A stretch of 64,000 bases of DNA from Promethearchaeota archaeon (GCA_048937405.1 JBHLNF010000002.1:224001-288000); one strand, 5' to 3'; positions 24,036-26,944 are shown, numbered from the stretch's first letter. Numbers and translations are program-made. The notes: generated by a model from the letters alone, not told the origin.

Positions 24036-24878
24036 ATGAAAGAAACAAGATACTCGAGATTAAAAGCAATAAAAGAATTTGGTTATAATGTAGATTGGGA
24101 TTTATTAAAAAAATTCCATGTAGGGATTATAGGAGTTGGTGGTTTAGGTTGTGTATCTTCTGAGATGGTTGTAAGGTGTGGAGTTGGTAAAATCTCCTTA
24201 TTCGATTTTGATACAGTAGAACTTGTAAATTTAAATAGGCTAATGTTCAAAGAAGAGCATATAGGATTAAAAAAAGTTCAGGTAGCCTCTAAAATTTTAA
24301 AAGAGATTAATCCTGATGTTGAAATTGAGACTTTTGATAGGAATGTTATGGATATCGATTTTGAAAGTAAATTTGAAGAATCCATTTCAAAAATGCACAT
24401 TATCTTAAATGGACTTGATAATATTCCTGCTAGAGAATATTTAAATGTGAAATGTATTAAACTTAATATTCCCTATATAGATGCAGGAGCTTCAAGAAGC
24501 GGTTTATCGGGTTATGTTCATCCTGTTATTCCATATAAAACAGCTTGTGCTAAGTGTATAAGTAGCATTGGTTTAGATGTACCAGATGAAAGAGGTGAAC
24601 CTTGTGTAGCATCACTCCCTTCGACCATGGCAATTTTAGCAAGTATACAAGTCCAAGAAATGTTAAAATTTCTATTGAAGTTCGGTGAAATGATTGATTA
24701 TTTAATGTATGATATGGTAAACGGGCGTTTTTCTGGTTATACGACACATTTGGATGAAAACTGCCCAATTTGTGGAAGAAAGTCTAAAATAATAAAAAAT
24801 AAAGTCATTCCTAAAATATCAGTGACAGATCTTGATGATTTAATAGATAAAATTAAAAATGAGGGTGAAAAGCAGTAA
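24036..24878 (+). CDS. uba5: UBA5-like E1 (UFM1-activating enzyme)
   Basis: YSRLKAIK, GVGGLG, DFDTVELVNLNR, ACAKC, catalytic CVASLPSTM (UBA5: CAASLPTTM), LKFLLKFG (UBA5: LKFLLNFG), C-terminal DLDDLIDKIKN (UBA5: SLEDLMAKMKN). Confidence 0.85.
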   Translation: MKETRYSRLKAIKEFGYNVDWDLLKKFHVGIIGVGGLGCVSSEMVVRCGVGKISLFDFDTVELVNLNRLMFKEEHIGLKKVQVASKILKEINPDVEIETFDRNVMDIDFESKFEESISKMHIILNGLDNIPAREYLNVKCIKLNIPYIDAGASRSGLSGYVHPVIPYKTACAKCISSIGLDVPDERGEPCVASLPSTMAILASIQVQEMLKFLLKFGEMIDYLMYDMVNGRFSGYTTHLDENCPICGRKSKIIKNKVIPKISVTDLDDLIDKIKNEGEKQ

Positions 24879-26077
24879 AATACTTTAAAATATCTAATGA
24901 ATTTTTAGAAGCTATCAAAAATCAAGCACTTTCAAACGAAAATGAAATTTATGGATGGCTACTTGGATACCAAAAAAAAGGTATTTCAAATGTATTAGGA
25001 ATTTTTGAATGCAAAAGATTTGAACAACAAACTTTGATTAGTGCTATTCCTGATGCTCAAGAATTTCAGGAATTAAGTTTTGTACTACCTCAAGGGATTG
25101 GCCCCATTGGAATTTATCATTCCCATCCTTTCTCAAGTGAAATCTTCCATAGTCATACAGATAATTTTACATTAATTAGCCTAAGTAATCAATTTCCTCA
25201 GTGTATCTCAATAATTACTAACGGACAACAAATTAATTATTATCAAATGGATAAAAAAGGCAAGATAAAAGAAATCGAAGTAAAGAAAGTTGAGGTTAAA
25301 ACACCTAAATTTTTATTATTTTCAATGAAAGAAGATTTAGTAATAAATTTACATAAAGAAAGCATCACCGGTTCTATAAATAGAGAAAAATTAAAAATAA
25401 AAATTATCAACAAAATAAGAGAATTTTTTGAGGAAAGCTGGGAGGATATGGAGTTATTTCATAAACACAGATTAATAAAGAAAAATGAATATATTAAACC
25501 ATATTTAGTAGATTCCATATGTGAAGATCCTGTCATTATGAAAATCCCAGATCATTATAAAATTCATAAGAAGAATGAATTATTTATCGAAACCATTAAT
25601 AAAAACAGTGAAATTAATACTCTAAGCTTTAATTTAATGATAAAAACCACAATTCCAATATACATTATAGAAGTAAAGAAAAAATATAATGAAATAAGCC
25701 AATTAATAAAAACTGAATTTATCAGTAATAATATTTTGCAAAAAGTTTATAATAGTATTATTGATATTGAAAATACACAAATTTTCCTCCCAGAAGATTT
25801 TTTTCTCAATTATTTTGGTTTTTATATTAAACTAATAAGCTTTGCTGATAATTTTATAGCTCATAATGGCCTATATAAATCAAATTTTAAGTTTTTGAAG
25901 AAACTATTATCAAATTTTGAAATTTTTACGAATAAGAAAATGGATAATAAATTTAAAAAAAATCTATTTATGTTTCTTAAAGATTTAAAAAATTCAAAAA
26001 ATCTTTTTAATGGGGAAGAAGAATTTATAAAAAAATTTTCAACTATTGAAAAAGAACTGAATTTCAAAAATATATAG
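24869..26077 (+). CDS. JAB/MPN+ metallo-isopeptidase with C-terminal extension (start uncertain)
   Basis: The frame is open from 24869 and includes ENEIYGWLLG upstream of the tracked TTG (25034), then GIYHSHP...SHTD. Confidence 0.8.
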   Translation, partial: KAVKYFKISNEFLEAIKNQALSNENEIYGWLLGYQKKGISNVLGIFECKRFEQQTLISAIPDAQEFQELSFVLPQGIGPIGIYHSHPFSSEIFHSHTDNFTLISLSNQFPQCISIITNGQQINYYQMDKKGKIKEIEVKKVEVKTPKFLLFSMKEDLVINLHKESITGSINREKLKIKIINKIREFFEESWEDMELFHKHRLIKKNEYIKPYLVDSICEDPVIMKIPDHYKIHKKNELFIETINKNSEINTLSFNLMIKTTIPIYIIEVKKKYNEISQLIKTEFISNNILQKVYNSIIDIENTQIFLPEDFFLNYFGFYIKLISFADNFIAHNGLYKSNFKFLKKLLSNFEIFTNKKMDNKFKKNLFMFLKDLKNSKNLFNGEEEFIKKFSTIEKELNFKNI

Positions 26078-26138
26078 AAAAGTAAATTAAAAATATAAAA
26101 AAGCTAAATAGAAAATCAAGTTATAGGGATGAGAAAAA

Positions 26139-26405
26139 ATGTCATCAGAATTGAATACAATATATTTTGTCAATAAATTTGGATCAGAAAAAAGGCAAAT
26201 CCCTTTTCCTGTTGCTCCAAATATTAGATTAATGGATACTATTCCAGAAATATCCAAAAAATTTGGAATTTCTTCTCAGAATATATGTGTTGCTAATATG
26301 GGTGGACAAGTTTTAACTGCAACTGATTTACTTCGCCCTATAAGTGAACTAGTAAATAAATATGGCAATTCCTTTGATATAATAGATAGAGGAATCGTAG
26401 GATGA
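26139..26405 (+). CDS. ufm1: UFM1-like ubiquitin-fold modifier ending in mature -VG
   Basis: 88 aa; C-terminal VNKYGNSFDIIDRGIVG matches UFM1 FLKHGSELRIIPRDRVG in register; single terminal Gly; stop overlaps the E2 start (ATGA). Confidence 0.75.
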   Translation: MSSELNTIYFVNKFGSEKRQIPFPVAPNIRLMDTIPEISKKFGISSQNICVANMGGQVLTATDLLRPISELVNKYGNSFDIIDRGIVG

Positions 26406-26944
26406 CACAAGAATCATATCGTTGGCAAAAATCAATATTGGATGAGATTGTTCAAGAATTCCATGAAAAGTGGAGTGAAATAGGACCTAAACATCCTGCT
26501 TGGAAAGATCGTATTAAGATTGAAATTGAAAAAGTTATGAAATATATCAATTTCCTTAAAATTACAAAAAATCGTCCTTGGTTCAAACTATTTCCAGAAA
26601 AAAATCCTCGCTACAATTATTTAATTTGGAATGGAGATTTGTTAGTTCCCGAAAGACCAGAGATTAATTTTGAGATAAAAGTGTTATTAACTTCAGAATA
26701 CCCTAAAGTATGCCCTAGATGCTTTATTGAGGAAGATATCATTAATTACTGTGGGAAACTATTTCTAAAAAATATTTGGGAGCAAAATCAAAAGAAATAT
26801 GTAATGATATGTCATGAGCATATGGTAAATACAGAATCGTGGCACACGAGATTAGGCATCGCCCATTTTTTTATAAGAGAAATTTGGGTGTGGTGGGCAG
26901 CCCAACAAAACGCAATAATAACAGAATTTGACAAAAAAAGATGA
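26402..26944 (+). CDS. ufc1: UFC1-like E2 (UFM1-conjugating enzyme)
   Basis: GPKHPAWKDRIKIE...KYI...WFKL (UFC1: GPRDRELWVQRLKEE...RYV...WFRL), YPKVCP, ICHEH (UFC1: ICLTDH), LGIAH...WWA (UFC1: FGLAH...PWLA); no HPN motif. Confidence 0.85.
   Translation: MTQESYRWQKSILDEIVQEFHEKWSEIGPKHPAWKDRIKIEIEKVMKYINFLKITKNRPWFKLFPEKNPRYNYLIWNGDLLVPERPEINFEIKVLLTSEYPKVCPRCFIEEDIINYCGKLFLKNIWEQNQKKYVMICHEHMVNTESWHTRLGIAHFFIREIWVWWAAQQNAIITEFDKKR

Follow-up and report, generated by a model that had tools for sequence, protein, structure and literature searches.

Does any prokaryote carry a UFM1-type conjugation cascade as a single genetic unit? The question arises from a tight plus-strand operon at positions 22932-26944 of the window, the 64,000-nt stretch of DNA analysed here (G000:C28:224001-288000, to which coordinates refer unless another locus is named), which belongs to the genome (4.47 Mb, ~28% GC) of an Asgard archaeon whose named relatives are Promethearchaeota/Lokiarchaeia. 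The eukaryotic UFM1 cascade comprises the activating enzyme (E1) UBA5, the conjugating enzyme (E2) UFC1, the modifier UFM1, the proteases UFSP1/2 and the UFL1-DDRGK1-CDK5RAP3 ligase (E3), all encoded by unlinked genes, and UFMylation serves essential ribosome quality control at the endoplasmic reticulum of animals and plants. Homology, conserved residues and structure predictions suggest that the archaeal operon is probably a working UFM1-type conjugation module. The chemistry of the cascade is well supported by homology. Among prokaryotic proteins, the E1 and E2 stand nearest to eukaryotic UBA5 and UFC1, and the modifier probably stands nearest to UFM1.

An earlier note on this DNA had described three genes here, encoding a UBA5-like E1, a UFM1-like modifier and a UFC1-like E2. 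The positions of these open reading frames (ORFs) and the ATGA coupling of the last two were borne out, but the count was short. A fourth gene, for a JAMM metalloprotease, lies between the E1 and modifier genes, overlapping the former by 4 nt (GTAA) and preceding the latter by 61 nt, and a fifth, for a protein termed X, stands at the head of the operon, outside the span then described, with 18 nt between it and the E1 gene. The modifier and E2 ORFs overlap by 4 nt. A divergent spacer of 246 bp separates the operon from minus-strand genes for a Vps22-like protein, an SPFH/Band 7 protein and two SBBP β-propeller proteins. The features of the operon are as follows.

22932-24017, plus strand: protein X (361 aa), the operon's first gene, with a C-terminal CxxC...CxxC zinc ribbon.
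24036-24878, plus strand: UBA5-type E1 (280 aa), an adenylation domain with Cys190 and the zinc-binding Cys 171, 174, 243 and 246.
24603-24605, plus strand: codon of E1 Cys190, GEPCVASLPSTM, the predicted thioester site, which pairs with the Cys of UBA5 VCAASLPTTM and is invariant in 13 E1s.
24798-24869, plus strand: C-terminal tail of the E1 (residues 255-278), with the helix DLDDLIDKIKN, the predicted E2-docking element.
24861-24868, plus strand: Shine-Dalgarno-like GAGGGTGA, 6 nt before the JAMM start position; the JAMM frame is open from the stop codon TGA that it contains.
24875-26077, plus strand: JAMM/MPN+ metalloprotease (~400 aa), with a likely start at GTA 24875-24877 that overlaps the E1 stop TAA.
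26139-26405, plus strand: UFM1-like modifier (88 aa), encoded mature and ending ...IIDRGIVG-stop.
26402-26944, plus strand: UFC1-like E2 (180 aa), whose start overlaps the modifier stop (ATGA at 26402-26405).
26810-26812, plus strand: codon of E2 Cys137 (in VMICHEHM), the predicted thioester site and the invariant Cys of the E2 family.

The UBA5/UFC1 mechanism, taken together with the conserved residues, suggests how these proteins may cooperate. A homodimeric UBA5-like E1 would adenylate the modifier at Gly88, and the modifier would then be held as a thioester on E1 Cys190. Through its C-terminal amphipathic helix the E1 would recruit the UFC1-like E2 and hand the modifier over to Cys137, from which it would be placed on target lysines. 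The JAMM protein would be the counterpart of UfSP, stripping the modifier from targets and cutting after the VG of modifier-E2 fusions to release both parts, while a near-cognate start codon would hold its level low.

With Pfam the E1 matches ThiF alone (177 bits over residues 6-243). Search of the Protein Data Bank (PDB) places human UBA5 first (9e-51, 176 bits, residues 4-263), ahead of MoeB (3e-25, 92 bits), ThiF (3.5e-21) and SAE2 (77 bits). The segments RYSRLKAIK, GVGGLG, NLNRL, PCVASLPSTM and LKFLLKFG align to human UBA5; they hold the first three of the motifs picked out previously (YSRL.A.K, C.ASLP.TM and LKFLL.FG), and the fourth, the tail DLDDLIDKIKN, is likewise present. Cys190 and the four zinc-binding Cys are invariant among 13 operon E1s. 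The catalytic Cys lies within the adenylation domain and a separate Cys domain is not present, since 280 aa leave no room for one. This compact E1 differs from UBA5 in lacking the N-terminal extension and the long linker, and only ~15 residues separate its last zinc-binding Cys from the C-terminal helix; no UFM1-interacting sequence was identified between the adenylation domain and the tail.

A phmmer search of 1.84 billion representative proteins returned three top matches with 49-64% identity, one of them identical to an operon E1 and in a cluster named Heimdallarchaeota. The next-best matches (37-42% identity, 160-179 bits) include named UBA5s of Volvox, Galdieria, Auxenochlorella and Cryptosporidium, and two more, without a protein name, sit on contigs with plainly eukaryotic neighbours; the nearest named non-Asgard relatives of the E1 in this collection are eukaryotic UBA5s. 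In a maximum-likelihood tree of 85 rows (quick search, midpoint root, support by the Shimodaira-Hasegawa-like approximate likelihood ratio test, SH-aLRT, only), the operon E1 group (SH-aLRT 95) and the UBA5 group (97) share a branch (96), on the opposite side of which stand MoeB/ThiF-like proteins and the four other ThiF paralogues of the genome. The earlier note had named grouping of the E1 with ThiF/MoeB as an outcome that would undo its reading; PDB scores, the large search and the tree all favour UBA5 instead.

Features of the E1 bear on a different explanation, namely that the locus works like the sulfur-carrier or cofactor systems of MoaD, ThiS, SAMP and Urm1, in which the E1 only adenylates or thiocarboxylates a small protein and tags nothing. 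The ThiF/MoeB fold, the MoeB and ThiF models that are the best NCBIfam matches (all far under their cut-offs) and the Gly end of the small protein would fit such a system. It is nevertheless barely credible here, as the E1 gene is invariably accompanied by genes for a JAMM protein and for an E2 whose Cys is invariant, and some loci encode this E2 as a fusion with the modifier. Neither a rhodanese domain nor molybdopterin, thiamine or tRNA-thiolation neighbours were found, and the other MoeB/ThiF-like paralogues of the genome score higher on the ThiF model than the operon E1 and are parted from it in the tree.

A related locus is found on an archaeal contig with Hjc and FtsJ neighbours (L060:4519-7203, plus strand; GCA_030595765.1, 50% GC), which encodes a 160-aa E2, a 396-aa UBA5-like E1 and a JAMM protein. 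This E1 has an acidic linker, and its position in the tree is to the eukaryotic side of the operon E1s (support 86). No modifier was seen within 5 kb.

The tail of the operon E1 was compared with the amphipathic helix by which UBA5 binds UFC1. The motif [DE]L..L[IM]..[IL] ends ~9 of 14 operon E1s, and four E1s are without the tail. Co-folding of E1 residues 246-280 with the E2 gave ipSAE values of 0.77-0.80 (best control, 0.01), which measure likeness to the UBA5-UFC1 pair rather than binding because UBA5-UFC1 complexes are already solved; the mark applied to this score is reached by 58 of 80 solved complexes and by 2 of 110 mismatched pairs. The runs share at least 86% of contacts, with a predicted local distance difference test (pLDDT) score of at least 67 for the partner. 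The C-terminal helix is thus predicted to dock on the E2, with an interface formed by E1 residues 255-278 and E2 residues 23-67 (helix 34-54 and strand 61-65), a stretch outside which Cys137 lies. The resemblance to the UBA5 helix suggested beforehand holds in these terms.

Relatives of the E2 come from metagenomes and from metagenome-assembled genomes named Asgard, and many bear Pfam UFC1 (PF08694) in precomputed annotation. All 34 aligned family members match PF08694 at E < 0.01 (best 1.2e-8), and UQ_con is touched by only two. A profile of the family finds UFC1 in the PDB at 3e-6, followed by an uncharacterised protein (0.13) and UbcH7 (0.2); a PDB search with the single window sequence found nothing. 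The E2 was modelled with AlphaFold2 on an input restricted to Asgard sequences (pLDDT 88.6); the model comprises a short helix (residues 12-16), a helix extending from 34 to 54, four strands and a single long helix (153-179), and it lacks the canonical C-terminal helix pair; the insert that precedes the active site is folded as a hairpin. Structural similarity search with Foldseek returned UFC1 at ranks 1-29, with template-modelling (TM) scores of 0.62-0.72 over ~170 columns, compared with 0.31-0.45 for other E2s. With VIA-align, Z scores were 15.5-16.3 for UFC1 crystal entries (148-157 residues, 20-22% identity) and 13.6-14.1 for two UFC1 nuclear magnetic resonance entries, and at most 9.4 for other E2s. 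UFC1 matches span model residues 5-180, while those of other E2s begin near residue 30. The extra N-terminal helical region agrees with the UFC1-type N-terminal helices claimed for this protein, and the E2 matches UFC1 rather than generic UBC/RWD proteins, as seen jointly in the family matches to PF08694, the profile values for UFC1 and UbcH7 and a Z score near 16 against at most 9.4.

No Cys other than Cys137 is invariant in the family, in alignments of 34 and of 24 members. Cys137 pairs with the Cys of P0274, the archaeal E2 of L060, in a joint alignment; this intermediate is 29% identical to the window E2 and scores above the Pfam UFC1 cut-off (36.7 bits, positions 12-152 of 155). A local pairing by HMMER of UFC1 GKICL with archaeal GKLFL was dropped in favour of Cys137 on the grounds of invariance, the intermediate P0274 and motif spacing. 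The window E2 reads G152-x-A-H155 followed, 8 residues on, by W164-x-A166, which mirrors G133-L-A-H136 and W145-L-A147 of UFC1; the UFC1 numbering agrees with residue numbers in PDB titles (T106, K108, Y110, C116, F121, W145 and E149). Cys137 lies 15 residues before G.AH, compared with 17 in UFC1. Of the two E2 motifs originally cited, G.AH-x8-W.A is therefore exact in its spacing, but IC..H (C137 and H140) fits only loosely, UFC1 reading IC...H.

The modifier was modelled with AlphaFold2 at a pLDDT of 83. Foldseek aligned the model to UFM1 with TM scores of 0.78-0.82 and a root mean square deviation (rmsd) of 1.2-1.3 Å, and to ubiquitin with ~0.66 and 2.7 Å. The top 11 entries in VIA-align were all UFM1 (Z scores of 11.0-13.5 and rmsd of 1.2-2.9 Å over 76-85 residues); the best other ubiquitin-like protein (Ubl) scored 10.8 and Caldiarchaeum ubiquitin 10.3. 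In these models the margin of UFM1 over other β-grasp folds is real but modest, as expected for such folds. Gly88 is invariant, V87, R84 and D83 are nearly so, and all 21 relatives end in Gly, nearly all in VG, which runs into a stop codon or straight into the E2. The single-Gly ending II.R..VG that had been reported is seen as IIDRGIVG followed by a stop, and compares with RIIPRDRVG of UFM1. Relatives of ~270 aa are modifier-E2 fusions (...VGS-, ...VGT-, ...VGG-), found at several separate loci in different Asgard families (e.g. L009, L013, L033 and L035).

Operons that encode Ubl, E1, E2 and JAMM proteins together are already known in prokaryotes from Caldiarchaeum subterraneum and Asgard archaea (ubiquitin, E1, E2, RING E3 and Rpn11-like JAMM), and the archaeal operon described here could in principle be another generic ubiquitin-like system of that type, its UFM1 likeness being convergent or over-read. 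The JAMM gene beside those for Ubl, E1 and E2 reproduces the Caldiarchaeum layout (PMC6043591), the modifier model also fits Caldiarchaeum ubiquitin as given above, and a few E2 relatives yield weak UQ_con or UEV matches. We nonetheless regard this explanation as very improbable. The fold of the E2 is 6 Z units nearer to UFC1 than to other E2s, and shares with UFC1 the N-terminal helix and the missing C-terminal helices; the E1 is devoid of a separate Cys domain and groups with UBA5. The enzymes belong to UBA5/UFC1-like rather than UBA1/UQ_con-like subfamilies, and the module contains no RING E3. Moreover, two classical E1-UQ_con E2 pairs are encoded separately in the same genome (G000:C7:334527-336293 and G000:C18:214212-217576), so that this archaeon has, with the operon, at least three separate E1-E2 systems.

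The JAMM frame (24869-26077, 402 codons) carries ENEIYGW, YHSHP and HSHTD, which align with the same residues of BRCC36 and are conserved among orthologues. The protein scores 24.2 bits on Prok-JAB, just under the cut-off of 25, and no family was assigned to its C-terminal domain of ~260 aa. In the eukaryotic cascade the corresponding protease is a C78 cysteine protease rather than a JAMM metalloprotease. A search of the archaeon's own genome for UfSP (PF07910, C78) gave no match, which is not evidence of absence because control genomes gave none either. Since release of the tag from the modifier-E2 fusions requires cleavage after Gly, the adjacent JAMM protein is the obvious candidate; the Rpn11 of Caldiarchaeum has been shown to process a ubiquitin precursor and to deconjugate (PMC6043591).

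The start of the JAMM gene is unusual. In the window no ATG, GTG or TTG occurs in the frame ahead of TTG 25034. The same lack of a canonical start ahead of the catalytic Glu is found at 10 of 16 loci (the window and nine others, mostly from the window's own family), where the frame opens at or just before GGTGA/GGTGG and ATA, ATT or ATC (GTA in the window) follows 6-7 nt on. At this position two loci have ATG, and a third starts with the GTG that lies within the GGTGA/GGTGG motif. The arrangement of GGTGA plus 6-7 nt is repeated in 12 related loci (the compared set includes L014, L016 and L042-L053). From this recurrence we infer that the gene may use conserved near-cognate initiation, which would keep the protease scarce. 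Gene callers shorten the gene and lose the catalytic Glu. Two other accounts of the start were rejected: initiation at TTG 25034 would remove the catalytic Glu, which all orthologues keep, and a frameshift fusion of E1 and JAMM is contradicted in L016, where an in-frame stop lies between the E1 end and the JAMM frame.

At loci from at least seven Asgard families, including Heimdallarchaeum, Sigynarchaeum and the cultured Lokiarchaeum ossiferum, the genes for X, E1, JAMM, modifier and E2 are again grouped, though in varying order, so that the synteny check proposed in the earlier note was positive in the families examined. A Band_7 gene is usually present at these loci, and a Vps22-like gene often. 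The co-occurrence of the operon genes is greater than expected by chance. A scan of 185,579 prokaryotic species, made with a single peptide pattern and thus leaving room for diverged relatives elsewhere, gave matches that are Asgard wherever a lineage is named, the remainder being labelled uncultured archaeon. Of 399 Asgard species genomes, 37 encode the module E2; the figures are 9 of 90 for high-quality genomes, 20 of 133 for the window's family and 4 of 53 for its genus. Genes flanking the module are metabolic and differ among genomes.

Two neighbours on the opposite strand complete the set of linked partners.

21309-22685, minus strand: Vps22/SNF8-like protein (458 aa), divergent from the operon.
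20305-21243, minus strand: SPFH/Band 7 protein (312 aa) whose tail is a coiled coil; its gene lies downstream of the Vps22-like one.

The Vps22-like protein comprises an N-terminal winged helix, a coiled coil and C-terminal tandem winged helices. A profile of eight orthologues finds human SNF8 in the PDB (5.6e-11, residues 326-434, the C-terminal third only), and the window protein scores 20.1 bits on Pfam EAP30. The module gene is a paralogue of the canonical Vps22/36 gene, which the genome carries at another site. The SPFH protein matches Pfam Band_7 at 3.9e-10. In a close relative whose E1 is 88% identical (L014:1-1089, minus strand, onward), the module SPFH protein has 474 aa and carries TIR_2 according to precomputed Pfam annotation; the window copy has none. 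X adjoins the E1, JAMM, modifier or E2 gene at 13 loci from several Asgard families. Searches with Pfam (14 orthologues), a PDB profile and the ESM Atlas assigned X to no family and gave a weak zinc-ribbon signal only; a CDC48-N-like identity, also considered, lacked sequence support. In Lokiarchaeum ossiferum (L030:4073-5464, minus strand; CP104013.1) X and the Vps22-like domain form one protein of 464 aa, a fusion that ties the two partners together. To judge from their linkage to the operon, the most likely contribution of X and of the Vps22-like and SPFH proteins would be target choice or a membrane site, and their conservation suggests a membrane-linked function with its own adaptor.

In one further genome (L037:7834-10524, minus strand; G153:C100), SIR2_2, TPR repeats and a UFC1-like E2 domain (residues 618-783) are combined in an open frame that reaches the edge of the contig stretch covered and is thus at least 897 aa long. 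The other module genes were not found on that stretch. This protein may have arisen as an immune-type side branch of the E2 family.

The same chemistry could also serve another end. As in Bil (BilABCD, mentioned in PMC11354881), CBASS Cap2/Cap3 and Bub, Ubl, E2, JAB and E1 are encoded in one operon with a patchy spread and occasional TIR/SIR2-type fusions among relatives, and the module might accordingly be an accessory conflict or antiviral system that tags viral or immune proteins. Its restriction to the small fractions of Asgard genomes and of the window's genus just given, the flanking genes that vary between genomes and the resemblance of the E1, JAB, Ubl and E2 set to Bil-type operons would suit that role. 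It is the patchy spread, the Band_7-TIR_2 variant of the close relative and the 897-aa SIR2_2-TPR-E2 fusion that keep the role in consideration. Set against this, PADLOC (2023, chiefly bacterial) returned only generic E1-E2 models on the E1 (at most 54 bits) and one weak match of 16 bits on the E2, and nothing on the other five proteins, and no system-specific model matched. UBA5 (176 bits) resembles the E1 far more closely than any defence E1 model does; the E2 folds like UFC1, and the hosts are Asgard archaea. At nearly all loci the partners are Vps22-like and SPFH proteins rather than nucleases or NADases, and the neighbours are metabolic, with no defence islands. On balance, an antiviral role appears unlikely.

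A number of observations weigh against the operon being a working UFM1-type module. Pfam Ufm1 (PF03671) was matched by none of 21 sequences (the modifier and 20 relatives) at E-values up to 10, and a PF03671 scan of the archaeon's own genome gave only chance-level matches elsewhere. The modifier profile found no significant match in the PDB, UFM1 included, and a single-sequence PDB search also returned nothing. Because PF03671 and profile matches are lacking, the protein is filed here as UFM1-like and not as a UFM1 family member by sequence: its proposed identity as UFM1 is supported by fold and C-terminal motif, but not at the level of sequence. The window E2 scores 21.7 bits on PF08694, below the cut-off of 25, and over profile positions 13-96 only. 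Relative to P0274, its family has a 13-residue insert just before Cys137. Neither TAK nor HPN tripeptides occur in the window E2; the corresponding region holds a near-invariant G118-K119 (Y-C-G-K), whose residue-level match is uncertain because of the insert. The JAMM start position in the window is GTA, two changes from ATG, so that the protease may be poorly made. The spread of the module is patchy for a core pathway.

The same weighing applies to the ligase step. UFL1-like genes are found in 140 of 399 Asgard genomes and in 113 of 133 in the window's family, and in none of three module-bearing families; since E2 and UFL1-like gene do not co-vary, a UFL1-type E3 step is not supported. The genome does encode a UFL1/DDRGK-like protein, as eukaryotes do: 790 aa with DDRGK, UFL1/PCI winged helices and a Vps28 C-terminal domain (G000:C16:22839-25211; L003:823-3195), an architecture already published (bioRxiv 10.1101/2020.10.19.343400) and unlinked to the operon. 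The description of the locus as a complete prokaryotic UFM1 system is for these reasons too strong in its first term: the UFM1-type reading is supported, but neither an E3 nor a UfSP-type protease was identified, the latter in the search described above, the UFL1-like gene is unlinked and co-variation is lacking.

Compared as a whole, the operon and the eukaryotic cascade have in common an E1 with its Cys in the adenylation domain, UBA5 motifs, a zinc site and a predicted E2-docking helix, an E2 with UFC1 fold and G.AH-x8-W.A, and a modifier with UFM1 fold and a single-Gly ...R..VG end. In contrast with that cascade, the archaeal genes form one operon, the modifier gene either specifies the mature form or continues into the E2, the distribution of the E2 does not follow that of UFL1, and X, Vps22-like and SPFH proteins are partners.

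The caution that novelty had to be checked was justified, for Ufm1 homologues have been reported from nine Asgard clades and no other prokaryote by structural modelling (Nat Microbiol 2026, PMC12962969). That study notes that its Ufm1 hits were "not full-length", which, compared by description only, fits the modifier-E2 fusions; its main text contains no UBA5, UFC1, JAMM protease or gene context. A 2023 phylogenomic study considered UFM1, UFC1 and UFSP2 eukaryote-only and UBA5 probably bacterial (PMC10183829). Our literature search, which lay outside subscription journals and so leaves room for priority elsewhere, found no account of this operon or of an archaeal UFC1. The operon supplies the E1 and E2 that were missing beside the published Asgard Ufm1-like proteins, physically linked to the tag and accompanied by a different protease and different partners, and suggests that the "eukaryote-only" UFM1 pathway has an archaeal forerunner.

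A wider proposal is possible, though we hold it tentatively and as a single joint claim: that eukaryotic UFMylation descended from this Asgard module, which was ancestrally a self-contained operon in which maturation and removal of the tag fell to a JAMM protein instead of UfSP, tag and E2 were at times made as one protein, targets were chosen by a Vps22-like winged-helix protein, X and an SPFH membrane scaffold rather than by UFL1, and UFL1/DDRGK1 were recruited later. If so, UBA5, UFC1 and UFM1 would all be Asgard-derived, in place of a bacterial UBA5 joined by UFC1 and UFM1 of eukaryotic invention. The origin and first task of UFMylation become testable, since the module occurs in cultured Lokiarchaeum ossiferum, in which conjugates, targets and localisation are measurable. 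A minimal set of E1, E2 and tag with an E1 of 280 aa is also useful for mechanism, and the natural tag-E2 fusions are ready protease substrates.

Two features of the window lie apart from the module. Downstream of the operon, a 97-aa ORF (27429-27722) is a letter-for-letter copy of an internal stretch of a 316-aa MoxR-like ORF (29833-30783), whose C-terminus is resembled by a 109-aa ORF (27006-27335); these two short ORFs represent a broken second MoxR-like copy, and genes for an MFS transporter and a small regulator are flanked. Farther on, a single ORF of 2758 aa (46448-54724, minus strand) stands out by a raised GC content of 0.34-0.38, compared with ~0.28.

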